A DNA stretch of 64,000 nucleotides from a virus, in the UHGV virus genome UHGV-1378516. One strand, 5' to 3'. The notes beneath the pieces are model-generated. The model did not search any database and was not told the origin of the DNA. It saw nothing but the letters and a program-made list of their open reading frames with translations. Position 1 is the first letter of the stretch, and each line of letters begins with the position of its first letter. The translations under genes were made by a program, and so were the position numbers. Shown here one piece after another: positions 3,134 through 30,846 of this stretch.

Positions 3134-3208
3134 TGTTCCAAGACGGATTCGAACCGTCACTAATACAAGGTTTGAGCTTGCATCCTCTGCCAATTGGGAT
3201 ACTGGAAC
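3134..3208 (-). tRNA. tRNA with anticodon CAA (nominally Leu) but short type-I architecture
   Basis: Acceptor GTTCCAG/TTGGAAC, T-arm GACGGTTCGAATCCGTC, anticodon loop CTCAAAC, discriminator A; no long variable arm. Confidence 0.5.
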
Positions 3209-4044: not shown

Positions 4045-4132
4045 CGGTAAGTAAAGGAGTCGAACCCTCACCGTATCTCTACAGTGGCAACAGTTTTCAA
4101 GACTGTTTGGCTGCCATTAGCCGCTACCTACC
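4045..4132 (-). tRNA. tRNA-Ser (anticodon TGA), type II
   Basis: Acceptor GGTAGGT/ACTTACC, T-loop TTCGACT, anticodon stem ACAGT/ACTGT loop CTTGAAA, long variable arm. Confidence 0.6.
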
Positions 4133-5598: not shown

Positions 5599-5672
5599 CG
5601 GTTAGTCAGGGATTCGAACCCTGTGCCATTCGCTTAACAGGCGACCGCACATACCTTATGTGCTTCCTAACC
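5599..5672 (-). tRNA. tRNA-Asn (anticodon GTT)
   Basis: T-arm CAGGGTTCGAATCCCTG, acceptor GGTTAGG/ACTAACC, anticodon loop CTGTTAA. Confidence 0.6.
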
Positions 5673-8120: not shown

Positions 8121-8248
8121 TGGTATGCCTCTTATAAGACCTCTTAAAAGGCTTTTAAGATAAAAGATAGATATCCAGAAAGATATCTGTTTAAATAGCC
8201 TTTTTAGAGGAACCTTTTAAGTTATCTTCTAAGTATTTATAAGCCTAC

Positions 8249-8280
8249 ACCTTGTCAAGTACTTTGTCAACAACTTTTTT
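8249..8280 (+). promoter_or_regulatory. promoter/operator-like element CCTTGTCAAGTACTTTGTCAAC (direct TTGTCAA repeat 11 bp apart) at head of plus-strand block
   Basis: Near-identical copy at 52571-52592 upstream of DNA polymerase gene; lies in divergent intergenic region. Confidence 0.35.
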
Positions 8281-8369
8281 AACTTGCAATAGTTCTTGAC
8301 TTGTTGTATGGATTACTGTACCATCTTACTTAAAGCTGTAGGTCTGCCTTGTTCTACAAAGGAGACTTA

Positions 8370-8531
8370 ATGAGAAAATCAAATAAACCGAAGAAAGGTA
8401 AGAATACCAATCACTGTAAGGAATCAAAAAGGGTAGAGTTAATCTACTATTCATCCTCTGAAATTGGTCTGTACCTGTTCTTTCAAAATTACAGAAGACA
8501 AGAGGATTATCTATGTGTAGTTCCCAATTAG
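8370..8531 (+). CDS. hypothetical small basic protein
   Basis: ATG at 8370 preceded by AAGGAGA RBS; within track ORF 8349-8531. Confidence 0.35.
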   Translation: MRKSNKPKKGKNTNHCKESKRVELIYYSSSEIGLYLFFQNYRRQEDYLCVVPN

Positions 8532-8746
8532 AAATCGCAGATATTATAGATTTATATCAAACTGCAAAGAGTCATGGCTATATAACCTCAATTGGAAAGA
8601 ATAGTCACTATGATGCTTTGACTGGAATGTATTTCAGGGCAATGGCTCAATCTAGTGAACAACACTTAATGGTTTCTTCCAGTGAGTTTACTTCGTTTCT
8701 CTATTGCAGCAAAATTATAAATCGCAGGAGAACTGAAAAATGTTAA
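8513..8746 (+). CDS. hypothetical protein (77 aa)
   Basis: ORF track; compact spacing. Confidence 0.35.
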   Translation: MCSSQLEIADIIDLYQTAKSHGYITSIGKNSHYDALTGMYFRAMAQSSEQHLMVSSSEFTSFLYCSKIINRRRTEKC

Positions 8747-9749: not shown

Positions 9750-11131
9750 TTAAAGCAAAGACTTACCCAGACTTCAAAGAGTTTGTGAAGGGCTTCATTG
9801 CAAATGTAAAGGCTGGTAAGAGATATGATTTTAGAACATATCAAGAGGCTATTTTACCACTCACCTATAGTTCATATTGGCCTGAAGCTGATATTGCAGA
9901 AGTTGAGGAGTTTGACTACAAACCAGACTACAAAGTCCCATTTAGCGATGAGTTGCTTTACAGCGTTGGTGCTCAAATGAGAACTTCTGACTTCTTCATG
10001 GACTTACAATATACAATTATCAATGGTAAAGACGTTGATACAGTTTATTGTGAATGGCTGGCAAGAGTTAAACCGTTCTCAATGTTGAATGCTAAGTTGA
10101 AGGATGCTATCAAGCCACCAGCAATCACTCAGCAACCAACCAATCAAACAGTAAATGAAGGTGGTACACTTAACCTAAGCGTTATTGCAACTAATGCCAC
10201 AGGATATCAATGGAAAAAAGATGGTGAGGATATCACTAGCGCCACATCTGCAACCTACACAAAACAGTCTGTAGTACCTTCTGATGCAGGTTCATACACT
10301 TGCGTTGTATCTGGAGAGGCTGGAACAAGCGTTACCTCAGATGCGGCAACAGTTACTGTTAACGCACTACCTGTGATTACACAGCAACCTTCTAGCCAGA
10401 CCATCAATGAGGGTGGAAACATCAGCTTGGAAGTGACTGCAACGGGTGCAACTGGTTACCAGTGGAAGAAAGATGGCTCTGACATTCCTTCGGCTACAGA
10501 GGCTACCTATAGCAAGTCTGGTGCTCTGCCAGCAGATGCAGGTTCATACACTTGCGTCGTAACAGGGGCAGGTGGTTCTGTTACTTCTAGCCCTGCAACT
10601 GTCACGGTAAATGCTTTACCAGTTATTACCAAGCAGCCAACCAATCAGGTAGTTAATGAGGGTAGCTCTTTGACACTGAGTGTTGAGGCGACAGGTGCGG
10701 AAGGTTACCAGTGGAAAAAGGACGATGTGAACATCCCTAGTGCAACTGGTGCAACTTACACGAAAGCTAACGCAGTTCCTGACGATGCTGGTTCATATAC
10801 CTGTGTAGTTACTGGTGCTGGTGGCACAACAGTCACATCTAATGCTGCAACGGTTACTGTGAATGCACTTCCTGTAATCACTCAACAGCCAATCAATCAA
10901 GAAATCACTGAAGGTGAGACCTTAACGCTGAATGTTGTGGCAACAGGTGCAACAGGCTATCAGTGGAAGAAGGGTGAGGAAAACATCCCAGACGCAACTA
11001 CTGCAACTTACACCAAAGAAGGTGCAACCACTGCTGATTCAGGAAGCTACACTTGTGTAGTGACTGGCGCAGGTGGCTCTGTAACATCTAATGCGGCAAC
11101 AGTTACAGTTAACCCAGCAGGGGAGGCATAA
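9746..11131 (+). CDS. Ig-like (I-set/Big-like) repeat protein, 4 tandem ~82-aa domains; Hoc-like decoration or adhesin candidate
   Basis: Repeated unit P(V/A)ITQQPxNQxxNEGxxLxLxVxATGATGYQWKKDGxDIxSATxATYTKxxxxxxDAGSYTCVVTGAGGxxTSxxATVTVN. Confidence 0.65.
   Translation: MIKAKTYPDFKEFVKGFIANVKAGKRYDFRTYQEAILPLTYSSYWPEADIAEVEEFDYKPDYKVPFSDELLYSVGAQMRTSDFFMDLQYTIINGKDVDTVYCEWLARVKPFSMLNAKLKDAIKPPAITQQPTNQTVNEGGTLNLSVIATNATGYQWKKDGEDITSATSATYTKQSVVPSDAGSYTCVVSGEAGTSVTSDAATVTVNALPVITQQPSSQTINEGGNISLEVTATGATGYQWKKDGSDIPSATEATYSKSGALPADAGSYTCVVTGAGGSVTSSPATVTVNALPVITKQPTNQVVNEGSSLTLSVEATGAEGYQWKKDDVNIPSATGATYTKANAVPDDAGSYTCVVTGAGGTTVTSNAATVTVNALPVITQQPINQEITEGETLTLNVVATGATGYQWKKGEENIPDATTATYTKEGATTADSGSYTCVVTGAGGSVTSNAATVTVNPAGEA
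10123..11106 (+). repeat. 4 tandem ~246-bp coding repeats (Ig-like domains)
   Basis: Units begin near 10123, 10369, 10615, 10861. Confidence 0.7.
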
Positions 11132-12045: not shown

Positions 12046-12427
12046 AGAGATTCAAGTAAAAGTTGACACTTTTGGACATGATGGTCGAGAAGATGCTGGA
12101 CTTGCCGACGCAGTGATTTTTGAGTGTAATGGTAATATCAGTCTTCGCTTTACAGGCTCAGGTAGCACCCTTCGCAGAATGCGAGATGATGCAGATGGTT
12201 GCCCTGTATTTGGTTGGTATGACATGGAGTTCCCACTTTATGCAATCCATTATCCAGATGGTGGGGAAGATTGGACGACTCAATCAATCCGTGATGAGCT
12301 TAACGGTATTCCAGTTGAGCAAGAAGAGCAAGAACCTGTTGAACTCACCTTCACTTTTATCAAAGAAGAGAAAGTTGGTGATTTGTCTGTAACTGAAGCA
12401 ATTCAAGTCTCACAGGTTATTCGTTAA
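12038..12427 (+). CDS. hypothetical protein (129 aa)
   Basis: ORF track; overlapping start/stop. Confidence 0.5.
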   Translation: MNKEIQVKVDTFGHDGREDAGLADAVIFECNGNISLRFTGSGSTLRRMRDDADGCPVFGWYDMEFPLYAIHYPDGGEDWTTQSIRDELNGIPVEQEEQEPVELTFTFIKEEKVGDLSVTEAIQVSQVIR

Positions 12428-12720
12428 TGAGTAAAGTACAGGTTGTTTTCCCTATTTGTGACTTCTCACTAGAGCGTGAACTTGACCTGTACGAAGAAAT
12501 TACTGACGAAATTATCTGGTCTGTTGTAGAAGAGGCTATCAAGAAGCTGTATGGTGGCCTCTTAAACCCATCAAGTAAGAAGTTAAGCACTAAGCAAGTA
12601 GCTGACTCATATGTTTCATATGATGCCTACAACAAACCTTTTGAGAATACCTGCTTTGACCTTATGGTAGGTAATAATAAAGTCAACTATTTCTTCGTCA
12701 GAGAGTTTAACGATGAGTAA
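12427..12720 (+). CDS. hypothetical protein (97 aa)
   Basis: ORF track. Confidence 0.45.
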   Translation: MSKVQVVFPICDFSLERELDLYEEITDEIIWSVVEEAIKKLYGGLLNPSSKKLSTKQVADSYVSYDAYNKPFENTCFDLMVGNNKVNYFFVREFNDE

Positions 12721-13057
12721 GCTCCATGTCACAGTGTACAAAAACTTCTCAGATATCAAAGAGTCTTTAACAAATAAGCTTGACTTACAACGTAAAAGAC
12801 TCTTTTTAATGTACGACATAGACAACTACAACCATCCTAAAGAGTTTAACTACAAAGATGGTACAAAGGTTGTTGAGTTTGAAGATTCTGTGACGGTATA
12901 TGTCAAGCATGACTTACCAGCAAAGTACATAGGGATGTTAGAGTACTACATATTCAAACATACTGGTATGCGTGGTGAATCTGTTAAGATATCTTCTATA
13001 GAAGTTTTTGAGAAACCTAACACACAACTTAAAAAGTATTTAATGAGGAAACTGTAA
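12713..13057 (+). CDS. hypothetical protein (114 aa)
   Basis: ORF track. Confidence 0.45.
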   Translation: MSKLHVTVYKNFSDIKESLTNKLDLQRKRLFLMYDIDNYNHPKEFNYKDGTKVVEFEDSVTVYVKHDLPAKYIGMLEYYIFKHTGMRGESVKISSIEVFEKPNTQLKKYLMRKL

Positions 13058-13638
13058 TGTCAGAAGAACATGAGCATATCCAACCAGAAGTTACATTAGT
13101 AAAACATTTCGGAAATGTAGAAGGCTGTGTAGCACTTTTTCAGACCAACATCAATTCTCCAGTCAAACTGTGCAAATTGACGATAAACACCAACAACATC
13201 AGTGTATGTGTGAATGAAGAAGTCCAATACTTCAAATTCAATGATAAAGAGGTTGATGCTGCACTGCTGAAATACAGAGCAAATCTTGAAAAAGATATTG
13301 ACCATAAAGAAGTTGTGAGTCTCTTTGCAGACCTCCATAAGCTTCTTGATAAGGTTGAAAAAAGAACATATTACATGAATAACGGCTCTATCATCACCAC
13401 TATGATTTCACCATGTATCTCTGAGCCAATCTTCACAGATGATGGTGCTTATTATATTGTAGCTTCAGCAGTGTCTGATTGGTGGTTAAAAAATAACGCC
13501 CTGAAAACAGTGATTGATGCTATCAGAGAGCACATCCCTACATTTAGCCCGTGGAAGGGTAAAGGTGATGAATTTATCGCACTGTTGAGTGAAGAGAGCA
13601 ATAAGCGTAGCGCATTACTGCCTAAAAAATACTCTTGA
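13057..13638 (+). CDS. hypothetical protein (193 aa)
   Basis: ORF track. Confidence 0.5.
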   Translation: MSEEHEHIQPEVTLVKHFGNVEGCVALFQTNINSPVKLCKLTINTNNISVCVNEEVQYFKFNDKEVDAALLKYRANLEKDIDHKEVVSLFADLHKLLDKVEKRTYYMNNGSIITTMISPCISEPIFTDDGAYYIVASAVSDWWLKNNALKTVIDAIREHIPTFSPWKGKGDEFIALLSEESNKRSALLPKKYS

Positions 13639-13710
13639 CCGAGTATACAATATTGATTATGATGGGAGCTATCGAGAGGTAGTTCCCTTTTTAGTTTCTG
13701 GAGAATAGAT

Positions 13711-14256
13711 ATGGCTAAAGTGAAAGAACACGATAAAATTATTTTGTATGTTAAACAGAATCCTTCAAAGAGTGTTGAGGCTGTTGTAACACACATCTCA
13801 CACAATGGGATAGTTTATTTTCGACCACTGAAGAACTTAGACTTTGACACAACACCAAACCATACATTTAGTACTTCTGCAAGACTGTGTGCTGGAACTG
13901 TATACTCGACTGCTGAGATTGAGTCCTTATCTTTCACAGGTGCTTACAAGAACTTTATAGGTATTGCTTTAAAGGACTCTGAGGAATCTTTTAAATTTTT
14001 CATGGAGACCAATAAAGGTTGCTATGCACATGTTATGCCAGTCTATAAGAAAGTTGACACAGAACTTACAAGCAAGTGCGAAGAGATTAGCAGCGACCTG
14101 AAGGAGCGTAAAACAGCTATTCAGAATGCCATTTACATCATTGAGAGGGACCACTTAGAAGTTCTTTTCAGAGATATGCTAAAAGCAGGGTTTACTCCAA
14201 ACGAAATTACAAGAGAAACACAACGCCAGTTCAGAAATGCTATGGTGAAAGAATGA
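13711..14256 (+). CDS. hypothetical protein (181 aa)
   Basis: ORF track; GGAG RBS. Confidence 0.5.
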   Translation: MAKVKEHDKIILYVKQNPSKSVEAVVTHISHNGIVYFRPLKNLDFDTTPNHTFSTSARLCAGTVYSTAEIESLSFTGAYKNFIGIALKDSEESFKFFMETNKGCYAHVMPVYKKVDTELTSKCEEISSDLKERKTAIQNAIYIIERDHLEVLFRDMLKAGFTPNEITRETQRQFRNAMVKE

Positions 14257-16783: not shown

Positions 16784-16810
16784 AGCCCCCTTAATTGGGG
16801 GCTTTTTAAT
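16784..16810 (+). terminator. rho-independent terminator
   Basis: Hairpin AGCCCCCTTAATTGGGGGCT followed by TTTTTAATTTTT. Confidence 0.7.
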
Positions 16811-16829
16811 TTTTATAAAATTTTATCGG

Positions 16830-17950
16830 TTGTTCCAACCTCTGGGTCACCATCATATGTGAATAAAATATCTATCCTTCTTAACAACCTTCTTAATCTT
16901 ACTCTCTATATAGTTATATAGTACTATATAGTATCTTAGTAACTATCTAGTGGTCTTAATAGCCCTCTGTATAACCCTTCTAAATAGCCCTCTAAACACT
17001 CTTCTAACAAGCCTTCTTAACAACCTATACAATCACCTTAACCATCTCTCTATACCCTCTTAGAAGCCCCTATACACCTCTTAATCTCTAGGTTAGCTAT
17101 GATACCCTCTATAGGTGTTCACTAGGTATTACTAAGCCTCTATATAGACTGTTTTAACAAACTTAACAGGAATATCTTCACAGACCTTATCTCACAAGGT
17201 CTAACACGGTACTAACAAGGTATCTTATAAGCCTGTTTCTACCTGTATTTTTAAAAGACTGTCTAGGTAATTATTCAGATTTTTAAAATTTTTATAAAAT
17301 AGGACTATCAAGTCATTTTTTAGGGTCTTTGAAGGAACTCAAAAATATCTGTAGGAGATGTATATCTGCTTGGTAGCCCTTAACAGCTCCCTTACAAGTA
17401 CTTTGCAAAATTTTAAAATATCCTTAACAATCTCTTAACAGTTCTCACATCTTCTTAACAACTCTTCAAAGGTCTTAACAGTTTCTTAACAGAACTAACA
17501 AGGGCTTAACAGTTTTCTAACAAGTGCTGAATAGGTTTTACAGAATCTTAACAGATGACTAACAAGAGCTAACAAGTTAATTTTAAAGAGTTATTTTGTT
17601 AGGGATTGGTAACAATACCAATTAGATAACTAACAAGTTCCTAATAAGTGTTTAATCTTTTTAACAAGCTATTAACATGGTCACTATCTCTTTTCTTATC
17701 GTTCCCTTTCTCTCTTAGTGATTCTCTAAACATACCTTTTAAAAACTCTCTATAGCTCCTTGTAAGCTCTTTTAAATCTCTTCCTAGTATCTACCCATCA
17801 ACTGTATGGATAGCTCTTTATAGGGCTTTACAGGAGCTTTTAAGGCTATGTCAAAGACTCTTACAAGGCTTTTACGTGGTCTTAACAGAGATTTAACAAG
17901 GGGCTAACAAGTCTCTAACAAGAATAACTATGTAGGGATTGTTAAGAAAT
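16830..17950. repeat. dense array of short YTAACAR motifs (CTTAACAA / CTTAACAG / CTAACAAG), more than 25 copies
   Basis: Read directly; densest at 17425-17580 with about 12 copies at 8-12 bp spacing; plus strand C+T-rich and G-poor. Confidence 0.6.
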
Positions 17951-18399
17951 TGTTAAGAAAATGTTAAGGGGGCTAGCATTTACGTAACTTTATAGCCTTT
18001 TTTACGTTACTTTGAAGTAACTTTATAGCCCCTATAACATGCTTTTTAGTGACTATCAAGGGGATTGTTTAGTTATTCACAAGATACTAGCCAGCCTATA
18101 AACTTTCACCCTTATAAGATTCTTTTAAGGCTCTGGGAAGCTCTATAAAGGGCTTTTTAGAGTGGGTTAATATGATTGCTTAAGTTAGGTTGATAAGGCT
18201 GTTATAGAGCTTTATAGAGCGTTTTAGTGGTTGCCCTTCCCTTTCGGATTATGGGCTTGTATTTAAGTTGATTTGATAAAAGGTTATAGAGTAGACTATA
18301 GAGTTATTGCTTTTAAGGTATGGGATAGATTCTATCGAATTAGTGGGATAGATTCTGGGAAGGAAAGGAAAGGGTTTTAATAGAGGCTATTACATAGAC

Positions 18400-18423
18400 G
18401 TAAAAAGCCCCATTTAAGGGGCT
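18400..18423 (-). terminator. rho-independent terminator ending the long minus-strand block
   Basis: Hairpin GCCCCTTAAATGGGGC followed by T-run on minus strand. Confidence 0.6.
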
Positions 18424-18461
18424 GTAAAGGTATCTGGGGCTATTTAGCCCCGTTGCGTCGA

Positions 18462-18710
18462 TTAGTTATGACCGTCTTTATCGTAATAAAGAGAAATAAT
18501 TTTATCGCCCCAATAGTGCCAATGTGTACCATCTTTCACCGCTTCTTGAATAGCTGCAATCCAAAAATCCGATTCAGGGTTATAATCCTTGACAATCTGG
18601 CTAACAAGGCTTTTCACCATGTCAAAAGCACTGTCAGTGCCTATAATGTCAAATTTAACGTCCAGAGAGTAGAAGCCAAATTCGTTAACAGTTGCGCGGA
18701 TAGTAGCCAT
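18462..18710 (-). CDS. hypothetical small protein (start trimmed to ATG after conserved RBS cassette)
   Basis: Track ORF read through the intergenic module; ATG at 18708-18710 follows AGGAG-ATTCTAAA spacer. Confidence 0.5.
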   Translation of the reverse strand: MATIRATVNEFGFYSLDVKFDIIGTDSAFDMVKSLVSQIVKDYNPESDFWIAAIQEAVKDGTHWHYWGDKIISLYYDKDGHN

Positions 18711-18780
18711 TTTAGAATCTCCTAGTTTAAGGGTTTTATTTAGTGGGGTGGGGGTTATCTCCTCCCCGTTGATTAGTAAT
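18711..18780 (-). repeat. intergenic cassette, variant A (GC-clamped hairpin + conserved RBS)
   Basis: TAGAATCTCCTAGTTTAAGG...TTTAGTGGGG...CTCCCCGTTGATTAGTAATTTA on plus strand. Confidence 0.6.
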
Positions 18781-19044
18781 TTACTGCATATTGGCGTATG
18801 TTGCAAGCCTTTTTTCGTTGTATTTTGTAAGAATCTCACAAGATAAAACATCGAACTTTGTAACCGCGTTGCCTTTGTCGAGGTCAAAAAAGCCAAACGC
18901 TTTACCATCTTTGAATCCGACAACTTCGTAAGACTCTTTGATGATTTCATCATTGAACAAATCGCTTTCGATACGGTGGAATAATGCTACATCTTCTTTG
19001 TCGGTTGCAATTTGTAAAAGTGTGGTTAATTCTACGTTTTCCAT
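18781..19044 (-). CDS. hypothetical small acidic protein (87 aa)
   Basis: ORF track; preceded by cassette copy. Confidence 0.5.
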   Translation of the reverse strand: MENVELTTLLQIATDKEDVALFHRIESDLFNDEIIKESYEVVGFKDGKAFGFFDLDKGNAVTKFDVLSCEILTKYNEKRLATYANMQ

Positions 19045-19110
19045 CTTGATAACTCCAGTTTAGGACTTTATTTAGTGGGGAAGGTCATTCCCTCCCCGTT
19101 GATTGACAAT
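19045..19110 (-). repeat. intergenic cassette, variant A
   Basis: GGACTTTATTTAGTGGGGAAGGTCATTCCCTCCCCGTTGATTGACAATTTAC. Confidence 0.6.
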
Positions 19111-19641
19111 TTACAGACTTTTGATTGTTTCGTCAATATCTTTTTCAATATCTTTTAAAGTTTTTTCTAAGTTCTTGATATTGAAAGATAAACCTTCACC
19201 GAGAGTCTTAGAGTAACCGCTAGGACGTAAATCATAAAGGCTAATTTGTTCTACATTAGAGAGGCTGACCATTTCACCGCTTACATCATAAGCTATTGAT
19301 ACAGTATTTTCAGGGGCTTTATAGAACTTGTTTAGTGACTTGATAGAACGTTCATAAGCCATTTTATAACCGTTTAAAAGGTTTTTAACATGGTTGTAAA
19401 CGTTTTTACACTCATCCAAGTAAATCCCTAAGAATAGCGGTAATAATTCTGCTACAGCTTGCATAAAGTGAGAGACTACAACGGTTGCAGCATTACGACG
19501 ATGAACGTAATAAGCTCCGTTTTCTGATTTAGTGATGGTTGCAAAGTGTACCCCATTGCAGCGAAATTCGTAGGTATCTTTGACAGGCTTTGACATTACA
19601 GCACTTGAGCGGATGTAATTGATGGCTTTGAACTTGTTCAT
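19111..19641 (-). CDS. hypothetical protein (176 aa; start trimmed)
   Basis: ATG at 19639-19641 directly after cassette RBS. Confidence 0.5.
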   Translation of the reverse strand: MNKFKAINYIRSSAVMSKPVKDTYEFRCNGVHFATITKSENGAYYVHRRNAATVVVSHFMQAVAELLPLFLGIYLDECKNVYNHVKNLLNGYKMAYERSIKSLNKFYKAPENTVSIAYDVSGEMVSLSNVEQISLYDLRPSGYSKTLGEGLSFNIKNLEKTLKDIEKDIDETIKSL

Positions 19642-19725
19642 TTTAGAGTCTCCTAGTTTAAGGATTTTGTTTAGTGGGAAGGTCATTCCCTCCCCGTTGA
19701 TTAGTAATTTACTTGCTTTGATAGC
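19642..19725 (-). repeat. intergenic cassette, variant A
   Basis: TTTAGAGTCTCCTAGTTTAAGGATTTTGTTTAGTGGGAAGGTCATTCCCTCCCCGTTGATTAGTAATTTAC. Confidence 0.6.
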
Positions 19726-19862
19726 TGATTGCAAGCAATTTTTTAAGCTTATCTATAAAGAATCTTTTAAGTGAATCCTTTTAGATAAACCCCCTCGAAC
19801 AAAGTTACCAATGTCAAGGGGTATTGTCAACACTTTTTTAAAAGTTTTTTGTAAGTTATTGA

Positions 19863-20204
19863 TTAACTGATGAATATTTTTTCAGGTTTTACATAGCTGA
19901 TACGCTGACTTTTTAGCAGGTCATCCCAGATTAACGCGGCGATATGGGCATAACCGGATTCACGTAAAAGTTTCATTGTTTTACTTCTCGTTTCAAAACG
20001 GCTTGCGTAGTACTCACTATTTAAAACCGTTTTATTCCCTTCGTTATCTACATGGATAACCTGCATCACTTGAAAGGGGCTTGTGTCCTCGCCTTTATTC
20101 CACTGTTCAAAGTATTTTAGGCACTGCATAGGTGACATCTTATCACTAACCTGAGTTGACCAAGATGAACCCTCTTTATCGGTAATTACGGTTACATAAG
20201 CCAT
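19863..20204 (-). CDS. hypothetical protein (113 aa)
   Basis: ORF track; ATG follows cassette. Confidence 0.5.
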   Translation of the reverse strand: MAYVTVITDKEGSSWSTQVSDKMSPMQCLKYFEQWNKGEDTSPFQVMQVIHVDNEGNKTVLNSEYYASRFETRSKTMKLLRESGYAHIAALIWDDLLKSQRISYVKPEKIFIS

Positions 20205-20285
20205 TTTTAGAATCTCCTAGTTTAAGGACTTTATTTAGTGGGGAAGGTCATTCCCTCCCCGTTGATGTGTAATTTAATCTATCTA
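20205..20285 (-). repeat. intergenic cassette, variant A
   Basis: Identical core to 21071-21160 copy including trailing TGTGTAATTTAATCTATCTAAAAAACAGTGTCAACA. Confidence 0.6.
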
Positions 20286-20308
20286 AAAAACAGTGTCAAC
20301 AAAATTTT

Positions 20309-20713
20309 TTAGAGTTCTGCATAAATTGCGTCGCAGATGTCACGAAAGTCATGATTTGCCAAATTACGTTGTAACCAAGTGGCAAAGAAATCAGCGATTG
20401 CAAAATTTGCGTCATACTCGACAGATAGCCACACTTTAACAGCAAATCTAAACATTTTCAAGTCTAACTCTTTATTCATTACCTTAGATTTGCCTAACAT
20501 GTCGGCCATTTCATATTGTGCGCCATCTAGTGTGATACCTGCTGCAACGTCAGCCAATGAACTTTTTACGTTTTCAACGTCTAAGATAACGCTTTGAATC
20601 TTTCCGATAATGTTGTGCAATGTTTCATCAGGCGCTGATGATGTCAGAACATTAATCCGGTTGACGGTCAAACGTGCTTTTAAGATTGATAATTCACGGT
20701 TATTAATGGTCAT
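20309..20713 (-). CDS. hypothetical protein (134 aa)
   Basis: ORF track; ATG 20711-20713 follows cassette. Confidence 0.5.
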   Translation of the reverse strand: MTINNRELSILKARLTVNRINVLTSSAPDETLHNIIGKIQSVILDVENVKSSLADVAAGITLDGAQYEMADMLGKSKVMNKELDLKMFRFAVKVWLSVEYDANFAIADFFATWLQRNLANHDFRDICDAIYAEL

Positions 20714-20797
20714 TTTAGAATCTCCAATTTAGGATTGAGTGGTAAAGCTCTTTATCTGGGGCTATCTTATCAGCTTGATAACCCCCTGTAAAGTACT
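20714..20797 (-). repeat. intergenic cassette, variant B (GGGGCT...CCCC hairpin + palindrome GTAAAGTACTTTAC)
   Basis: TTTAGAATCTCCAATTTAGGATTGAGTGGTAAAGCTCTTTATCTGGGGCT...CCCCCTGTAAAGTACTTTAC. Confidence 0.6.
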
Positions 20798-21070
20798 TTA
20801 CACTAAATGCAGTTTTTTACCTTTTACTATAATGTAACTCGATGCACTATTGCTTTGCACATCCTGATAAATTCTGCGCAAACGGCCTTCGTAGTGTACT
20901 TTCCAACTGGTTGGAATCTTTTTACCGTATCCCGTAGCAGTTTTTTGGAGTCCTGCGACTTGCCAATCTAAGATATGTTGTTCAGCTTGTAAGTCTTCAA
21001 AGTGCATGACACCATCTACATAGTGACGTAGTGTGACATTTAAAGTGCGACCGTTGTTAGTAGTATACAT
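20798..21070 (-). CDS. hypothetical protein (90 aa)
   Basis: ORF track. Confidence 0.5.
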   Translation of the reverse strand: MYTTNNGRTLNVTLRHYVDGVMHFEDLQAEQHILDWQVAGLQKTATGYGKKIPTSWKVHYEGRLRRIYQDVQSNSASSYIIVKGKKLHLV

Positions 21071-21160
21071 TTTAGAATCTCCTAGTTTAAGGATTTTATT
21101 TAGTGGGGAAGGTCATTCCCTCCCCGTTGATGTGTAATTTAATCTATCTAAAAAACAGTG
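21071..21160 (-). repeat. intergenic cassette, variant A
   Basis: Near-identical to 20205-20285 copy. Confidence 0.6.
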
Positions 21161-21493
21161 TCAACAGTTTTGTTTTCGTTTGCTCAATTCTTGAACAATT
21201 ACAGCGTAGTAGTCTTTTAAGTCACTGATATTTAAAGCATTTATTAGTGAATTATAATCATCGATTAACTGAAAATCATCTTTGAAAATGTCGCTAATCT
21301 GATACGTTCTCGCTTTAAATCTGAAGCTCATTTCTAACCGCTTTATTTGCTCATCACTGAGACGCCCTAGAAAGCTTTCTACAAGGTTATTGCTAACCTG
21401 CTGTGTGATTGCCTTATTTGCTAGATTATAGGCTTTATATGCCTTATATAGCGCGAAAATGGCAATGATTGCAGTGATACCAGTCATTAACAT
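21161..21493 (-). CDS. hypothetical membrane protein (N-terminal TM helix)
   Basis: MLMTGITAIIAIFALYKAYKAY hydrophobic start; overlaps upstream gene by 7 nt. Confidence 0.5.
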   Translation of the reverse strand: MLMTGITAIIAIFALYKAYKAYNLANKAITQQVSNNLVESFLGRLSDEQIKRLEMSFRFKARTYQISDIFKDDFQLIDDYNSLINALNISDLKDYYAVIVQELSKRKQNC

Positions 21494-21783
21494 GGTGTTT
21501 CCTCTTTACGTGATACTTTGCCATTTACAGTTATCTCATAGGATTCTAATAAATCGCTTTTAGACTTTACAGGGCTTTTAAAAGTATCATCATAGATATT
21601 GACTTGCAATACAGGTTTTTTATATTCCCTGCAACTATTCCATAAGCAAATCACTACACGACGGCCTTTGATTTTTCCGTGCAACCATTCCATAACATCA
21701 TGCCTATTCCTTGATGTTTCAATGAAATCAATTTTATTAAGTAACTTGCTTAGATTTTCACGGACTTTATTTGATAGTTTCAT
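21487..21783 (-). CDS. hypothetical protein (98 aa)
   Basis: ORF track; ATG follows cassette. Confidence 0.5.
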   Translation of the reverse strand: MKLSNKVRENLSKLLNKIDFIETSRNRHDVMEWLHGKIKGRRVVICLWNSCREYKKPVLQVNIYDDTFKSPVKSKSDLLESYEITVNGKVSRKEETPC

Positions 21784-21868
21784 TTTAGAATCTCCAGTTT
21801 AGGATTTAGTTGTAAAGCTCTTTATCTGGGGCTTAAGATATCAACTTTTAAACCCCCTGTAAAGTACT
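21784..21868 (-). repeat. intergenic cassette, variant B
   Basis: GGTAAAGCTCTTTATCTGGGGCTTAAG...CCCCCTGTAAAGTACTTTAT. Confidence 0.6.
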
Positions 21869-22162
21869 TTATTTGTTAATTTTCAGCTTTGCATAACCTC
21901 TCATTGTACGAATTGGAGATGTTAAGGCTACGCGTCTAATATATGCCTTTTTCGTGTATACATTTGTCTTCCCGATAGTGTTTACACATGTAAAAAGATT
22001 TATTGGTGAATTTTTTAACTTCAACTGTTTATCAGCCTTCACACCCCATCTTACAGCAGATTGTTTTCCGTTGTCAACCACTTTCCCGCCTAACTTTTTC
22101 GCCATGATGCGAGCGTCATCGCGAGTTTTTGCAGTAATTACAACGTTTTTAATAATAGCCAT
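21869..22162 (-). CDS. hypothetical basic protein (start trimmed to MAIIKN)
   Basis: ATG 22160-22162 after TGGAGAACTTAAAA cassette RBS. Confidence 0.5.
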   Translation of the reverse strand: MAIIKNVVITAKTRDDARIMAKKLGGKVVDNGKQSAVRWGVKADKQLKLKNSPINLFTCVNTIGKTNVYTKKAYIRRVALTSPIRTMRGYAKLKINK

Positions 22163-22248
22163 TTTTAAGTTCTCCAATTTAGGATTTAGTGGTAAAGCTC
22201 TTTATCTGGGGCTTACTTTATCGAACTATAAGCCCCCTGTAAAGTACT
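22163..22248 (-). repeat. intergenic cassette, variant B
   Basis: Hairpin GGGGCTTACTTTATCGAACTATAAGCCCC then CTGTAAAGTACTTTAT. Confidence 0.6.
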
Positions 22249-22629
22249 TTATTTAATTTTGAAGATTGTTACATAACCATCACTCCCGATGATTTGTGAT
22301 ACTCCAGCCTTTTCTACTTGATAGCCCATATTTTCAAGATGATAAATAGCATCATCATAACCATATGCGCCACCCTGATAACGTCTCTTATCACATCTTA
22401 TCAGGTTTTTTCCACGTCCAGCAAGTGCATGGAGAATGGTTTTTTCACTTGAAAGAGTGCCATCTAACATGGTTGCCGTGTAATGGTTGATTTTATTCCC
22501 GTTGATATCATACTTGAAATTGAACGAGTGAACAACAATCACATTACCTTTGAAATTTTCATCAAGTGACTTCTCCAGTACGCTACGAAAGTTGTCTTTG
22601 TTGATGAATTTAGGCGCACGATATTTCAT
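22249..22629 (-). CDS. hypothetical protein (126 aa), first gene of the cassette array
   Basis: ORF track. Confidence 0.5.
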   Translation of the reverse strand: MKYRAPKFINKDNFRSVLEKSLDENFKGNVIVVHSFNFKYDINGNKINHYTATMLDGTLSSEKTILHALAGRGKNLIRCDKRRYQGGAYGYDDAIYHLENMGYQVEKAGVSQIIGSDGYVTIFKIK

Positions 22630-22700
22630 TTTCTGAATCTCCTAGTTTAAGGACTTTATTTAGTGTGGAAGGTCATTCCCTCCCCGTTGATGCAAATACT
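22630..22700 (-). repeat. intergenic cassette, variant A (most upstream copy)
   Basis: TTCTGAATCTCCTAGTTTAAGGACTTTATTTAGTGTGGAAGGTCATTCCCTCCCCGTTGATG. Confidence 0.6.
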
Positions 22701-22897
22701 AGATAACCACGTTCAAAGAGTCAAGAAAAATTTTAAAAATATTTTTGACAAAACTGTAATGAAACGGGCGCACACGACTACCACAAAACAGAACACAAAT
22801 CAAGAATTATTTTTCAATCCGCTACAAATTTTTCCCTTGACTTTTGGGGAGAGGGGGAGTAAGAGGGGGAGAGGGGTTGGTCTGGCTCTCTATAAAA

Positions 22898-23110
22898 ACC
22901 TACCTGCACGATTCTAAAATGATTTTTCTTGCCCGACCTGAGCGGGGTCTGCACGTTTTGAAAATGAAAAATCTCTTTGGAGATTACCTGCACAGTTTGA
23001 AAATGAATTTCCTCTTTGGAGTTCAAAATTTCCTCTACAGATTTCTCTATAGAAATATACCTGCACAATTCTGAAATGAAAAAGCCCTCCTTACCTGAAA
23101 AATTTACCAG
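22898..23110. repeat. four direct repeats CCTGCACNNTTYTRAAATGA(W) with CTCTTTGGAG-like spacers, preceded by a G-rich tract (22850-22890)
   Basis: Copies at about 22898, 22946, 22988, 23061. Confidence 0.5.
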
Positions 23111-23152
23111 ATAAGAAAGGCTTAGTCTATTGTGAATATCCTACGAAGTTTC

Positions 23153-23938
23153 TTAGTTCTTTGCGTCTAAGAAGGTAACTTCTGGCGAAGAGAAAACTGT
23201 CTCAATATCCTCATCAGTTCTTGCATAGATGTAAGTGTCTGCATCACTGCCAAATGTTACTGCAATCCTGTGATTGCTCTTCGACAGGTGGGTAACTAGA
23301 GCGTTACTTAGAGACATCTTTTCAACCGGAGGGTTACTTTGATGTATCTTACCTTTTCTTCGTCTGAAGAGGGTAACTGCATTATCCGTGAACACAACTA
23401 CACCTGCGAAGTATTCTGGTTCACAGTAGTTCTTCCAACCTGAGCGTAACTTGTGGTACATCTCTCCTTCATAGACATATAGATAAACATCTACACTCTT
23501 CATTGCCTGATTGATGATAACTGTGACGGCTTGAGGGTCCAACCCACCGATACCTGCACCAATCATAGGTAAACCAACTTTCTTCAACTGATTAACTTCA
23601 CAGTATCTGTTAAGCTGTTTCAAAGATGACTCTAAAGCACTGTATCGGGCATCTTTACCAGTCTTAAGCTGAGTGTAAAGGTTAGCTATACGGCCTTGTT
23701 TTACACGTGCTACAGAGAAATTACCCAGTAAATTTTCACAGGGTTTGTGTCCTATACCACCTGCATATAGATAAACTTCTGTATCGGTCTCATATGCTTT
23801 TGGGTAAAGTTTAGAAATCTTGTCAGCGATACCTGCACCCATTAAATTCATACAGTTGCAACCGTGACCGATGATGTCAAACTTACCTTTATCAAATGCG
23901 GAAAAGATATCACCGTTGATAATTTTTACAATACCCAT
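23153..23938 (-). CDS. macro-domain-like protein (putative ADP-ribose binding/processing) with C-terminal extension
   Basis: N-terminal GDIF...DIIGHGCNCMNLMGAGIA and later VGLPMIGAGIGGLD resemble the GDIT...VNAAN...GGGV and ...FPAISTGVYGYP elements of macro domains (by-eye alignment to E. coli YmdB). Confidence 0.45.
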   Translation of the reverse strand: MGIVKIINGDIFSAFDKGKFDIIGHGCNCMNLMGAGIADKISKLYPKAYETDTEVYLYAGGIGHKPCENLLGNFSVARVKQGRIANLYTQLKTGKDARYSALESSLKQLNRYCEVNQLKKVGLPMIGAGIGGLDPQAVTVIINQAMKSVDVYLYVYEGEMYHKLRSGWKNYCEPEYFAGVVVFTDNAVTLFRRRKGKIHQSNPPVEKMSLSNALVTHLSKSNHRIAVTFGSDADTYIYARTDEDIETVFSSPEVTFLDAKN

Positions 23939-23939
23939 A

Positions 23940-24140
23940 CTAATAATGCTCCCAACGTTGCATGTCTTCGGATGGTTTTACACGGTTACCCTCATGGTCT
24001 ACATAACCTGCACCACAACCTTCACAGATAACTGGCATAGCTGAACCAGCTTCAAACTCTTCTTTGGTGAAGAGACCTTTCAAGTCCCCTGTATCAACAC
24101 CAAAATGTTCTATTGCACACTTCTTGCAGAAATCAGCCAT
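23940..24140 (-). CDS. small zinc-ribbon protein
   Basis: CKKC ... CEGC Cys pairs in 66 aa. Confidence 0.45.
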   Translation of the reverse strand: MADFCKKCAIEHFGVDTGDLKGLFTKEEFEAGSAMPVICEGCGAGYVDHEGNRVKPSEDMQRWEHY

Positions 24141-25972: not shown

Positions 25973-26664
25973 TGTTTAACTAACATGGTTTTAATGTGTG
26001 GAAGGATTCTGTTTACCTTCTGAACATTCTTCTCTGTATCTTCTATAAAGCATACTATATTAAAGTAAGGAAGAATGCAAGACTGAATCATCCTCACTTT
26101 CAAACTTTCTGCACTTATAGAGTTAGTTCCAAAACCACGCATAAAAAGCAAGTAATCATGCTCTATATTGTGCCTTAAAAACATCTCAGTAGGTATTCTC
26201 TGAGATTCACCTCTTGCTGTCAAGAGTCCAACTGCTGCATGATTTGCAATTGCATCAATAATGTTGAAAACATATGTTGGTTTTGCTCTTACAGAATCAA
26301 GAAGATTAGTGTACTGTGAGAATGACCCATCAGTCAATTCCGTTGAGCAATCTTCGTGATTAAAATTTGTAAGAACACCATCAATATCTGCTAAGATGAG
26401 GTTACCTTTTTCTACAAGGTCTTTATTGACTATCACTAAACTATCACGCCTTACACCTATAGCTTGTCCAGTCTCTTTGTCCACAACGTTCACAATGGGT
26501 TCTGATGTGTGGAACTCTTCAAGTGAACATACAACCTCTCTTGCAGTGTCTTCAAAATCTCTGCACTGTTCTGGAGTCCATACACAGGAATCAAGACCTA
26601 ACTCATGAGGATGCAAGTCATAAGCGTGGCACAGGACTTCATCAGACTTTCTTAATTTTTTCAT
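25969..26664 (-). CDS. HAD-superfamily phosphatase-like protein (possible nucleotidase)
   Basis: Motif I-like LILADIDGVLT and downstream GLLTAR / IEDTEKN elements. Confidence 0.4.
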   Translation of the reverse strand: MKKLRKSDEVLCHAYDLHPHELGLDSCVWTPEQCRDFEDTAREVVCSLEEFHTSEPIVNVVDKETGQAIGVRRDSLVIVNKDLVEKGNLILADIDGVLTNFNHEDCSTELTDGSFSQYTNLLDSVRAKPTYVFNIIDAIANHAAVGLLTARGESQRIPTEMFLRHNIEHDYLLFMRGFGTNSISAESLKVRMIQSCILPYFNIVCFIEDTEKNVQKVNRILPHIKTMLVKH

Positions 26665-27190
26665 GATTTACCTTAGAAATGTTTGTTGCAAATTCACATT
26701 GAGCGATAACTTTCATATTGTTATAGACATCTTGAGAGTATTTCTTAGCTTTAGGGATTTTGTACGAATACCCAGCATTATATGATGCTAAAACTTTTTG
26801 TAAAGTCTTCTTTGACTTTGGGTGACCATGTACCTTCGTCCAAAACTCAAGCTCTTTATGTGTTTCTTTTGCGGCATAGTCAAAATCTTTTAAGAGTTTC
26901 TTTTTAGCAACATTAGGACTAATTTTGTTACGCTTTACAACAGTCTTCAAGTGATTCTGGAAGATACCGTAGTCATGGGTCTTTTTATTTTCTACCTTCA
27001 GACCTAACTCTGACTCTTGTAAGGCTATAGCTGCTAGAGTGATACCCCAACCTTTACCCATGTTATTCTCACCATACTGGTAAGCTTTTAACATGTTCAC
27101 TTTTTGGCTAATTGATAGCTCTGGGCAGTCAACTGCATAAGATAAGTGTGCTGTAAACATTAAGCACAAACCTAGAATCAATTTCTTCAT
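26642..27190 (-). CDS. secreted lytic-transglycosylase-like (SLT domain) protein
   Basis: Cleavable-looking signal peptide MKKLILGLCLMFTAHLSYA; AIALQESELG...YGIFQ resembles SLT catalytic region. Confidence 0.45.
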   Translation of the reverse strand: MKKLILGLCLMFTAHLSYAVDCPELSISQKVNMLKAYQYGENNMGKGWGITLAAIALQESELGLKVENKKTHDYGIFQNHLKTVVKRNKISPNVAKKKLLKDFDYAAKETHKELEFWTKVHGHPKSKKTLQKVLASYNAGYSYKIPKAKKYSQDVYNNMKVIAQCEFATNISKVNHEKIKKV

Positions 27191-28400: not shown

Positions 28401-28479
28401 CTTATTACTCTCTCTTGTTAGTTAATCAATCAATTTGTGAGGCTATTTTAAGGGGCTTTGAAGCCCCTTGTCAAACACT

Positions 28480-30846
28480 TTAATCGTAAATTGTAGTCCC
28501 TTCTGGAACACACTTCACATCAAAGCCTAAAAACTTACTCACTTCGATAGGTGATACTTTATTCCAATCTAAGTGTGAAAGCAAGAAGTTTTCTTGTTTT
28601 CTTTTTGAAAGATAGTTTGTCAGCTTAATAACCATGCGGTCACCAGCTTTCTTAATCTTTTTGTACAGTTTTGTGTCATTATCAAGGCATGACTTCAAAT
28701 CCTGAAGAACACTGATAGTGTAAGTGTATGCAAACGGTGCAGCCACATACTGAATCTTACCGAACATTGCCTCAACAGCATCTTCATTCCCTTCTAAGAA
28801 GATTGTCTTAATAGTATCCCTTGAATAACAATACCCACGAGAAATCTTCCTGTTATTAAACGTAAAGTTTCTGGCAATAATCCAACTGCTTGTAAGGTCA
28901 AGGACACCATTCATATAGATACGTGTCATATATCTGTTATGGTTAATCCAGTGAACATCAGTTAAGCTGTCATTCAAGAGTTTCTCATCTACTTCAATCC
29001 AATCTTCTGGTATCTTTTTCCAATTTGCTTTTCGGAAAACATAGACTGTCTTACCTGTAACATTAGCAACTGACTTAGCTACATCTTCTGGAGATGAGCA
29101 AAAACATCTACCATCAACTGTGTCACCAACTGCCTTAATGTAAAGTTGAGGTTCTTCAATTGTGTCTAAGTCTTCTGACACCTCTTTGTATGAAGCTACA
29201 GATTCTGCTGGAACAGCTTTCCATAGTTTTACAACACCTCTCACAGCCTCTTTACGCTGATAATGATGCTCCTTATCAGACATTTTCACAATCTTTAACA
29301 AGCTTTTATCAAGTTTGTGTAGATTGATTAAATCATCTAACTCTTTTTCAGTCGAGAATACAAACACAATACCATTGTATCTGTGGAACAGGCCTGACTC
29401 GTTAGCGTAGTCTCGACATGCACCACGCAAGATTTGATTTCGTCCTACAGTCTTCTCAGTACCGTTTTTATTGCGACGGTCATTAATCACGAACAAAAAC
29501 TGTTCAATTTGGCTTTTACGCATTGCACCAAAGATATTGAACATGCTTGCCTCTTGAGTGTAGGAAAGTGCTGTTGCACGAATCTTACTCTCTAAAGAGT
29601 TGAACTTGACATAAGCAACTGGGTCATAAAGATAATCTACTTTAGGGATATTGTTCCCGTTCCTATCAACCTTAATATTGCCTTTACCGTCACGTTCATA
29701 AATGACTGAGCCGTCTTCTGCGTAGATAATTCCACGACGAATGTTTAACAATTCTTCTTCCAGAGAATCAAGCTTAACGCCTCCCCACTCTAGCTTTGGA
29801 CACACAGCATTAAACATCTCTCGTGAGTTCAAACGTAACTCTGCATAAGCCTGTGCAGCATCCATGAGTGTAGGTTGGCTATTAACTTTCTTGATAACAT
29901 CCTTTGTAATTGCTTCAGTTATCTTTTTGGTAGCCTCGATGATAACATTTTTTGTCGTATCATTCATCTGCAATGCTTCACGAGAAGCTGCTATAGCAAC
30001 TGAACCAATAGGCATGTAGATGTTTACAAGGTCTACGCTCCTACGGAAAAACTCTGGCAAGACTTTGAAGAAATCATCACCAAGTAACGCTTCCATGTTC
30101 ACTGGATAGGCAATATTACCCATCACCACATTAAACTCTGTCCTGTTACCACTAGAACGCCAGCTTTGCTTATGAATCATGGCATCATAAACACCTTCTT
30201 CACGGGCAATGACGTTCATATCTGCTAATACATCGTCGTACTCAATATTACTTTCTGGTTTTACAGTGAAGTATGAGTACACATTCCCAGCTTCTTCAAA
30301 GAACTTTGAGATACGGTGGTCAGCAACTGCCACACGTACAGCTAAACCATTAGGCTCTTTTGTTGGGTTAGTTGTCAGCTTAGTTACTTGAGGGATGCCA
30401 TTCTCAAGATAAACAGAGTACTTATTAACAACACCGTCAACATAGCTAGACACTGTGAATGACTGAGCAATTGCAAATGGGGATTTTGAGCCGATACCCA
30501 TTGCACCAATGTAGTCATTAGAGTCATTCTTCGTAGAAGCCCCGTAGTTTAGGTACAAACTCATAACTTTATCATGAGTCAATCCAGTTCCAAAATCACG
30601 AACTTCAAAGTAAGGCTCAAAACGAGTAGGTAAATGCACATGGAACGGAATGTTCTCTTTTCCAGCTTCTTTCTGAGCATCTACTGCGTTACATGACAGT
30701 TCACGAATCACTGCCCTTTCTTTAAAGGTATATACACCAGAACTCAAAAGGCTGAACATCTCAGGTGTCATTGTAATCTGTGCTTGAGACGTCTCTAAAG
30801 AAGTTGAACTCTTAATCACTTCTGCGTGGTCATTTACCATGCGCAT
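28480..30846 (-). CDS. rIIA: rIIA-like protein with N-terminal GHKL (histidine-kinase-like) ATPase domain
   Basis: GHKL N-box RELSCNAVDA, G1 box VRDFGTGL, G2 box GAMGIGSKS; 788 aa. Confidence 0.55.
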   Translation of the reverse strand: MRMVNDHAEVIKSSTSLETSQAQITMTPEMFSLLSSGVYTFKERAVIRELSCNAVDAQKEAGKENIPFHVHLPTRFEPYFEVRDFGTGLTHDKVMSLYLNYGASTKNDSNDYIGAMGIGSKSPFAIAQSFTVSSYVDGVVNKYSVYLENGIPQVTKLTTNPTKEPNGLAVRVAVADHRISKFFEEAGNVYSYFTVKPESNIEYDDVLADMNVIAREEGVYDAMIHKQSWRSSGNRTEFNVVMGNIAYPVNMEALLGDDFFKVLPEFFRRSVDLVNIYMPIGSVAIAASREALQMNDTTKNVIIEATKKITEAITKDVIKKVNSQPTLMDAAQAYAELRLNSREMFNAVCPKLEWGGVKLDSLEEELLNIRRGIIYAEDGSVIYERDGKGNIKVDRNGNNIPKVDYLYDPVAYVKFNSLESKIRATALSYTQEASMFNIFGAMRKSQIEQFLFVINDRRNKNGTEKTVGRNQILRGACRDYANESGLFHRYNGIVFVFSTEKELDDLINLHKLDKSLLKIVKMSDKEHHYQRKEAVRGVVKLWKAVPAESVASYKEVSEDLDTIEEPQLYIKAVGDTVDGRCFCSSPEDVAKSVANVTGKTVYVFRKANWKKIPEDWIEVDEKLLNDSLTDVHWINHNRYMTRIYMNGVLDLTSSWIIARNFTFNNRKISRGYCYSRDTIKTIFLEGNEDAVEAMFGKIQYVAAPFAYTYTISVLQDLKSCLDNDTKLYKKIKKAGDRMVIKLTNYLSKRKQENFLLSHLDWNKVSPIEVSKFLGFDVKCVPEGTTIYD

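Follow-up and report, generated by a model that had tools for sequence, protein, structure and literature searches.

The virus genome UHGV-1378516, analysed here as one stretch of 64,000 nucleotides (nt; the window), contains ten short open reading frames (ORFs), all on the minus strand between positions 18462 and 22629, nine of which have their own upstream module of about 100 bases. The locus raises the question of what such a module, repeated from gene to gene, contributes to the expression and exchange of the genes behind it. The window belongs to a Felixounavirus (subfamily Ounavirinae), and its array region is 88–96% identical to Felix O1-type myoviruses; the counterpart in Felix O1 corresponds to approximately ORFs 15–23, directly downstream of a macro-domain 'phosphatase' gene.

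Our analysis indicates that the modules are probably cassettes for early expression and recombination in a hyperplastic early-gene region, resembling the promoter-early stem-loops (PeSLs) of the T4-type phages RB49/phi1, T4/PST and KVP40/nt-1 (Arbiol et al. 2010, PMC2839356; Comeau et al. 2014, PMC4122927). The in silico observations behind this reading are the repeats themselves, promoter-type conservation, retention of a hairpin, the lack of U-tracts, and the occurrence of breakpoints and swaps between module variants at the cassettes. From these we infer transcription starts, promoter activity and the effect of the hairpins on RNA.

Nine cassettes in an array of ten genes

Profile searches of the window recovered six copies of one module variant (variant A; E 3e-29 to 7e-23) and three of a second (variant B; E ~1e-29), all nine on the minus strand from 18708 to 22733, in agreement with the six and three copies counted in a first-pass annotation of the same DNA. 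With these profiles, which were built from array copies, no comparable cassette was found outside the array in the 64 kb window. A weak variant-B-like match was returned at 28438–28487. The variant-A hairpin string, allowing at most one mismatch, occurs five times against zero expected by chance, and the sixth copy (A6) carries a divergent G/C hairpin, GGGGAGGAGATAACCCCCACCCC. The variant-B palindrome GTAAAGTACTTTAC is present inside the array as one exact copy and two copies with one mismatch.

Several details of the first-pass annotation required adjustment. It had placed a cassette before each of the ten genes; there are indeed ten genes, but gene 4 has no cassette. It had also described the same ribosome site, spacer and ATG in both variants, whereas the tail (GGAG, 8–9 nt, ATG) is similar between copies without being identical, and that of A5 deviates (GGAGTTATCAAGATG). 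The proteins measure 82–176 amino acids (aa), not 81–176 aa. Its remark that the ORF list over-extends genes through the cassettes applies to 18462–18953, 19111–19734 and 21869–22177. With these small corrections, the repeats are confirmed as real and confined to the array, and comparison with related phages shows that they are conserved in those genomes.

Promoter-type conservation in both variants

Cassettes were collected from Felix O1, wV8, KhF3 and AYO145A, from the Citrobacter and Shigella Mooglevirus phages Mordin, Michonne and Sf13, from the Erwinia phage phiEa104 and from IMG/VR contigs, giving 144 unique copies of variant A and 147 of variant B from three genera. Among the matches listed, an IMG/VR scan with a 15-mer from variant B returned mostly chance single matches.

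Variant A has the layout of a TTGACA-like hexamer, a 17-nt spacer, TAAATT, 7 nt and (C)AACGGGG. In a profile of 139 unique copies anchored on CAACGGG, T-12, A-11 and T-7 are invariant (139/139), TTG at -35 is conserved at 99/86/98%, and an A-tract occupies -44 to -40; the 17-bp spacer is almost without information and positions -10 to -8 are variable. Across the 147 variant-B copies, the -35 hexamer TTTACA is present in 100%, G-14 of an extended -10 element in 86%, and T-12/A-11/T-7 in 95–96%, while positions -10 to -8, although part of the hairpin loop, are close to random.

Both variants thus look like sigma-70 promoters, a feature overlooked in the first-pass annotation. The conservation has a sigma-70 information profile that would not easily be explained by RNA structure alone. 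A consensus promoter scan flagged seven of the nine sites (A1, A2, A3, A5 and all three of variant B), with TTTACA-17-TAnnnT within each variant-B copy, and the record of phage AYO145A labels as 'promoter' one variant-A copy and a gene-less element equivalent to 19790–19830 of the window. In Felix O1, reverse transcription PCR (RT-PCR) placed the peak of array ORFs 16, 20, 21 and 22 at 5 min after infection. Because every cassette is promoter-like, the array is better read as a series of separately promoted genes than as a polycistronic message in need of processing.

Among the variant-A cassettes, A1 (22627–22733) has its -35 element TTGACT at 22719–22724, its -10 element TAGTAT at 22696–22701, a predicted start at ~22688, the hairpin at 22665–22685, GGAG at 22639–22642 and the ATG at 22627–22629. 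A2 (21068–21173) combines TTGACA (21159–21164) and TAAATT (21136–21141) with a predicted start at ~21128, a hairpin at 21105–21125 and an ATG at 21068–21070. The same -10 hexamer recurs in A3 (20202–20308; TTGACA 20294–20299, TAAATT 20271–20276, predicted start ~20263, hairpin 20240–20260, ATG 20202–20204) and A4 (19639–19743; TTGCAA 19729–19734, TAAATT 19706–19711, predicted start ~19698, hairpin 19676–19695, ATG 19639–19641). It is also found in A5 (19042–19145; TTGACG 19131–19136, TAAATT 19108–19113, predicted start ~19100, hairpin 19077–19097, ATG 19042–19044) and A6 (18708–18815; TTGCAA 18801–18806, TAAATT 18778–18783, predicted start ~18770, divergent hairpin 18745–18767, ATG 18708–18710). 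Genes 8 and 9 end within these two promoters: their stop codons supply the initial TAA of the A5 and A6 TAAATT hexamers, and the corresponding -35 hexamers fall within the last codons of these genes, so that both promoters are encoded inside protein C-termini.

The three variant-B cassettes all carry TTTACA at -35. B1 (22160–22252) has this element at 22238–22243, TAAAGT at 22215–22220, a hairpin at 22208–22236 within a long helix at 22193–22251, a predicted start at ~22207 and its ATG at 22160–22162; its palindrome contains the stop codon of gene 1. In B2 (21781–21872), TTTACA (21858–21863) is paired with a TG-extended -10 element, TATCTT (21835–21840), the predicted start is at ~21827, and the hairpin, long helix and ATG are at 21828–21856, 21813–21871 and 21781–21783. 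B3 (20711–20801) likewise has a TG-extended -10 element, TAAGAT (20764–20769), behind TTTACA at 20787–20792, with a predicted start at ~20757, the hairpin at 20758–20785, the long helix at 20743–20800 and the ATG at 20711–20713.

Stem-loops without U-tracts

In all 44 distinct variant-A hairpin sequences, the stem-loop starts at +4 to +6 of the predicted transcript, with a stem of 6–8 bp and a folding free energy of -7 to -17 kcal/mol; at least one relative's variant-A copy, outside this survey, is apparently without a G/C hairpin. The evidence for variant A is therefore a hairpin kept at a fixed place despite sequence change. Judged against the start predicted from promoter geometry, it resembles a 5'-terminal stem-loop. 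The variant-B hairpin, GGGGYTTA...TAAGCCCC, extends over the promoter spacer and the -10 element and ends at the predicted start; in folding, the variant's own predicted transcript has no hairpin and is essentially unstructured. The earlier placement of the hairpin in the 5' untranslated region consequently stands for variant A but not for variant B, where it lies upstream of the predicted start.

RNA that reads through variant B from upstream folds differently. The flanking palindromes pair with each other to form 19 pairs (6 + 5 + 8–9) with a 3x3 internal loop, giving an interrupted helix of ~19 bp closed by an 11-nt loop, with fold z-scores of -2.6 to -3.6. In 72 distinct sequences, 96.4% of cells are paired, compared with 32–57% after sliding the partners. 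In the upper stem, a GC-to-UA double change occurs at the third pair in four Erwinia-phage copies, and one outer-stem pair shows the same double change in nine copies (Fisher p 1.5e-6, ignoring shared ancestry). In the outer-stem change, the left half of the first palindrome varies together with the second palindrome's right half, which favours a long helix over two protein-binding dyads.

No U-tract follows the hairpin in any of 141 variant-A and 144 variant-B unique copies (285 in total), with at most two T in the next 8 nt. As the first-pass annotation had proposed, the cassette hairpins are not canonical intrinsic terminators, which combine a GC hairpin with a U-tract. The only two minus-strand terminators called in a scan flank the array: one with a U-tract at 23082–23123, behind the macro-domain gene that precedes the array (Felix O1 't13'), shields the array from transcription entering from that side, and a second, also with a U-tract, closes the array at 18406–18423. 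Between the latter and the last gene, a promoter-less cassette remnant on the minus strand (18436–18455) consists of CAAC and GGGGCTAAATAGCCCC, followed by AGATACCTTTAC. The presence of CAAC-GGGGCTAAATAGCCCC after the last gene hints that the hairpin also serves the upstream message.

These features bear on a somewhat unlikely but substantial alternative, in which the hairpins act as terminators or attenuators against upstream transcription and each gene is expressed only from its own promoter. A GC hairpin stands behind every array gene, including the remnant after the last one, a PeSL stem-loop cut lacZ expression as strongly as rrnB T1 (PMC2839356), and the annotators of KhF3 and wV8 labelled some of the hairpins as terminators. 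However, the complete absence of U-tracts from the 285 copies contrasts with the canonical terminators that the same phage possesses at both ends of the array, and the KhF3 annotations are on the opposite strand. The variant-A hairpins labelled as rho-independent terminators on the strand opposite the genes (KhF3 3180–3200, 4045–4065 and 5604–5624; wV8 9990–10010) are probably an artefact of terminator-finding software.

An unlikely alternative is that the array is transcribed as one or a few polycistronic early messages, with the hairpins serving as RNase III-type sites that cut them into stable monocistronic mRNAs. The lack of U-tracts, together with the well-paired and partly covarying variant-B read-through helix and its internal loop, would suit this explanation, and the size and shape of that helix resemble T7 RNase III sites. 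Like the cassettes, the T7 early sites (R0.3 to R1.3) are intercistronic helices without U-tracts in an early region transcribed by host polymerase, and the read-through helix shares with them a length of about two turns and an internal loop. The T7 sites, however, lie in one long transcript from promoters A1–A3, whereas each cassette site overlaps its own predicted promoter. The RNase III analogy drawn in the first-pass annotation fails for variant A, where a hairpin of 6–8 bp at ~+5 is far too short beside the ~20 bp of double-stranded RNA, often with an internal loop, that characterise T7 early sites, and is structurally possible for variant-B read-through RNA only. Processing also leaves the promoter-type conservation of both variants unexplained, particularly T-12/A-11/G-14 in the unpaired variant-B loop, and an E-value scan of 17500–24000 returned no Rfam match. 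Processing could coexist with promoters in variant B.

A more elaborate and rather improbable reading would have variant B dual-coded, as a promoter in DNA and, in read-through RNA, as a helix that is cleaved in an RNase III-like manner or stalls exonucleases, with the cassettes forming a portable 'gene socket'. The 3' side of the internal loop coincides with the predicted start, so that processed and newly initiated mRNAs would share a 5' end. The socket would be recombination-competent in at least three Ounavirinae genera, possibly exchanging genes via excised mini-circles.

It is very doubtful that a dimeric repressor, from phage or host, uses the 12-bp palindromes of variant B (TAAAGTACTTTA over the -35 element and TAAAGAGCTTTA at +4 to +15) as DNA operators to shut off these promoters. 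The sites are dyad-symmetric, highly conserved and flank the core promoter, but it is the outer halves of the two sites that co-vary (G:C to T:A in nine sequences, the change tested above), not the halves of each palindrome. Moreover, their centres are 47 bp apart, or ~4.5 helical turns, and variant A has no such sites.

Cleavage of GGAG sites by a RegB-type nuclease was considered and rejected: no RegB domain was found, and both phiEa104 gp007 and its counterpart in the window are SLT-domain proteins. The public label of gp007 (1987–2499), 'predicted T4 endoribonuclease RegB', is unsupported, the protein matching an SLT lytic transglycosylase domain (E 5e-5); the window counterpart (26642–27190) gives a weaker SLT match. 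Analogies with nut/boxA-like antitermination and with integron attC sites were likewise dropped: the order of motifs differs, and no integrase domain was present in the scanned proteins.

Gene exchange at cassette boundaries

Alignment of the array with Felix O1, wV8, KhF3 and Mordin produced 22 alignment ends, of which 18 fall in a cassette or within 6 nt of one; cassettes make up ~25% of the array. In Felix O1, a single cassette replaces A5, gene 9 and A6, and relative to that phage gene 9 and one flanking cassette form an insertion. In wV8, four extra genes lie between one variant-A and one variant-B cassette, and in Mordin and Michonne cassettes are joined head to tail without a gene between them. 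Array size among relatives varies from 9 to 18 genes.

Cassettes precede 23 protein families among the relatives, and for six of these the upstream variant differs between genomes, being A in some and B in others. Such swaps before the same family would fit exchange within the shared 3' leader. Variant-A paralogues share genus-specific states, with a -10 element of TAAATT in Felixounavirus and TAAAGT in Mooglevirus, and members of one genus have a higher mean identity to each other than to copies from another genus, which suggests homogenisation by recombination.

It is scarcely credible that the repeats are selfish or mobile DNA without an expression function, such as MITE-like elements, targets of homing endonucleases or attachment sites of an integron-like kind. 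Their multiple copies, their position at gene boundaries and their coincidence with gene gain and loss would suit such an origin, but they have a single orientation, a fixed register to the start codon and the information profile of a promoter plus ribosome site, they lack terminal inverted repeats and target duplications, and scans of the ten array proteins and ten neighbouring upstream proteins revealed no integrase or endonuclease domain.

A model for cassette function

We propose that each ~100-bp cassette would act as a self-contained expression module composed of an A-rich upstream tract, a sigma-70 promoter for host polymerase, a G-run/C-run stem-loop and a standard translation start. 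The promoter would take the form TTGACA-17-TAAATT in variant A and TTTACA-17-(TG)n-TAnnnT in variant B, and the predicted translation start is CCT(T)AAAC(T)(A)GGAGA, 8–9 nt and ATG. In variant A, the stem-loop at ~+5 to +25 of the gene's own mRNA would most likely be a 5'-terminal stabiliser, and in read-through RNA it would become a 3' hairpin for the message ahead of it. For variant B, only RNA arriving from upstream would include the hairpin, as the top of the ~19-bp interrupted helix, and this helix could have a role in insulating, stabilising or processing the preceding message. With the same ~100 bp placed between unrelated genes, homologous recombination from one cassette to another would add, delete and swap genes among related phages.

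Several observations weigh against this model. Felix O1 RT-PCR places ORFs 14, 17, 19 and 23 at 25 min, so not all units look strictly immediate-early. Our literature search found neither transcriptome papers on Felix O1-type phages nor transcript-end data for them, and the starts and promoter strengths given here are predictions. The invariant CTTTACA of variant B is also part of the RNA helix, and its conservation is thus not independent proof of a -35 element. Covariation in variant A is weak, with a double change in one of five consensus pairs, because the stems are slippery G/C runs whose insertions and deletions disturb the alignment; the covariation counts for variant B are uncorrected for shared ancestry. 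Finally, exchanges of whole gene units must end in intergenic DNA, which is here almost all cassette, and the enrichment of breakpoints is therefore partly built in.

Relation to known systems and earlier annotations

The cassettes share with PeSLs a sigma-70-type early promoter with N17 spacing and an AT-rich upstream tract, and a Gn-loop-Cn stem-loop positioned between or over the -35 and -10 elements (variant B) or just after the -10 element (variant A). Both kinds of element have a Shine–Dalgarno sequence and ATG at the 3' end, cluster ahead of small ORFans within hyperplastic regions, and contain the end points of the indels and replacements that distinguish relatives. The -35 element of variant B, TTTACA, equals the TTTACW of the T4/PST PeSL promoter consensus TTTACW-N17-TAYWAT (PMC2839356, PMC4122927).

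Despite this common architecture, on which alone membership is based, the cassettes belong to Ounavirinae instead of T4-type phages and have no sequence homology to PeSLs. They form two very uniform sequence families across three genera, with a far more uniform leader and ribosome site. The variant-A hairpin lies inside the transcript (+5), slightly beyond the listed PeSL positions, and that of variant B is lengthened by flanking palindromes to the ~19-bp helix. In addition, the promoter and terminator activity of PeSLs and their mini-circles are experimental findings (PMC2839356), whereas the cassettes are described here from sequence. No literature linking PeSLs to Felix O1 was found in the library searched.

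A further parallel concerns the 5'-terminal stabilising stem-loops of E. coli mRNAs (ompA-type), reportedly described by Emory, Bouvet and Belasco in 1992. Such stem-loops lie within about 0–4 unpaired nt of the 5' end and protect from there against 5'-end-dependent decay; the variant-A hairpin begins 3–4 nt from its predicted 5' end. In contrast to the ompA-type elements, this 5' end is predicted, and the hairpin may also serve the upstream message.

Parts of the module have been recorded before. 'Direct repeats' of 57 bp and 39 bp are described in the Felix O1 paper. The database record of wV8 carries features DR_1 to DR_9, and the wV8 paper contains no discussion of the repeats. In the record of Mordin, a 14-bp repeat is marked ahead of ribosome sites. 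These annotations are piecemeal: none joins promoter, hairpin and ribosome site as one module, recognises variant B as a promoter or ties the module to gene shuffling.

Genes and proteins of the array

All ten genes lie on the minus strand, and each protein gives a full-length match to a distinct PHROG family of unknown function. Gene 1 (22249–22629) encodes 126 aa (phrog_4495), gene 2 (21869–22162) 97 aa (phrog_5089) and gene 3 (21487–21783) 98 aa (phrog_4401). Gene 4 (21161–21493; 110 aa, phrog_4375), the gene without a cassette, encodes a protein with a hydrophobic N-terminus, and its start overlaps the gene 3 stop by 7 nt (ATGTTAA), which suggests translational coupling to gene 3. Genes 5 (20798–21070; 90 aa, phrog_3436) and 6 (20309–20713; 134 aa, phrog_4327) are followed by gene 7 (19863–20204; 113 aa, phrog_4318), which has variant A upstream here and in Felix O1 and variant B in wV8. 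The remaining genes are gene 8 (19111–19641; 176 aa, phrog_4725), gene 9 (18781–19044; 87 aa, phrog_7022), which is absent from Felix O1, and gene 10 (18462–18710; 82 aa, phrog_4559).

The earlier statement that these proteins have no recognisable motifs was borne out by Pfam, NCBIfam, PHROG and PDB searches. None of the ten matched Pfam or NCBIfam, none of three tested had a significant sequence relative in the PDB, and an AlphaFold model of gene 8 (predicted local distance difference test score 91.5; one of five models confident) resembled no solved fold in the PDB. Across these searches (Pfam, NCBIfam, PHROGs and PDB sequences, with PDB folds for gene 8), nothing functional appeared below E 0.2. 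Precomputed database entries list PF26821 for homologues of gene 8, for which the local Pfam-A scan was empty; this is presumably a newer family of unknown function missing from the local Pfam-A copy. The suggested role of the array proteins in host takeover or anti-defence is neither supported nor refuted by these results.

In phage Bas63, the counterpart of the array comprises genes 98–111, and within it a genome-wide knockout screen singles out only g107, which is reported to be conditionally essential in E. coli S17-1. This gene (8154–8696; wV8 gene 21) represents a 180-aa family that occupies a cassette slot in many relatives and is absent from the window. A slight structural similarity to the NAD-binding domain of RNA 2'-phosphotransferase has been reported for g107, and the family gave no Pfam match.

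Gene-less stretches in and beside the array

The 120-nt gene-less spacer at 19745–19862, conserved in Felix O1, wV8 and AYO145A, holds the promoter-like element mentioned above (19790–19830, minus strand) together with a decayed ribosome-site-like stretch, CACTTAAAAGATTCTTTATAG. The element is close to the promoter consensus, with TTGACA (19825–19830), a 17-nt spacer and TAACTT (19802–19807), and has a CCCC..GGGG hairpin around the -10 element. It is probably either the scar of a lost cassette or gene, or a second promoter that stands in tandem ahead of gene 8.

Between the upstream terminator and A1, the interval 22845–23094 contains four copies of a repeat of ~22–34 nt, with a consensus of roughly TCATTTTCAAAAYGTGCAGGTA, followed by the polypyrimidine run CCAACCCCTCTCCCCCTCTTACTCCCCCTCTCCCC. 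On the other side, between the array terminator and a convergent gene, 16800–18460 is a stretch of ~1.65 kb without an ORF of at least 40 aa. Within it, 16881–17967 contains 30 TGTTAR hexamers (26 on the minus strand), or ~27 per kb against ~1.8 per kb in the rest of the window, often phased at 10–11 bp (17475/17486/17495/17506/17517; 17882/17893/17904/17915; 17940/17951/17962). This stretch looks iteron-like and might serve as a replication origin or as an array of protein-binding sites. The same gap is present in Felix O1 (12305–13928) and is not a physical genome end. The idea that the array lies beside such an end, as do the early regions of T7 and T5, was rejected: UAB_Phi87, whose ends have been determined, starts in the tRNA region.

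Implications for Felix O1-type phages

Recognition of these modules, roughly nine to eighteen nearly identical sets of early promoter, leader and ribosome site, allows concrete start sites to be predicted for the early programme. It also explains mis-annotations in public records, including over-extended ORFs and wrong-strand 'terminators'. As natural insertion sites equipped with ready expression parts, the cassettes could be used for engineering Felix O1-type phages. In these genomes, they mark the sites at which accessory genes are gained and lost, with at least 23 gene families in their slots across relatives, and they would extend the PeSL principle, in which a regulatory cassette is also a recombination substrate, beyond the T4-type phages.

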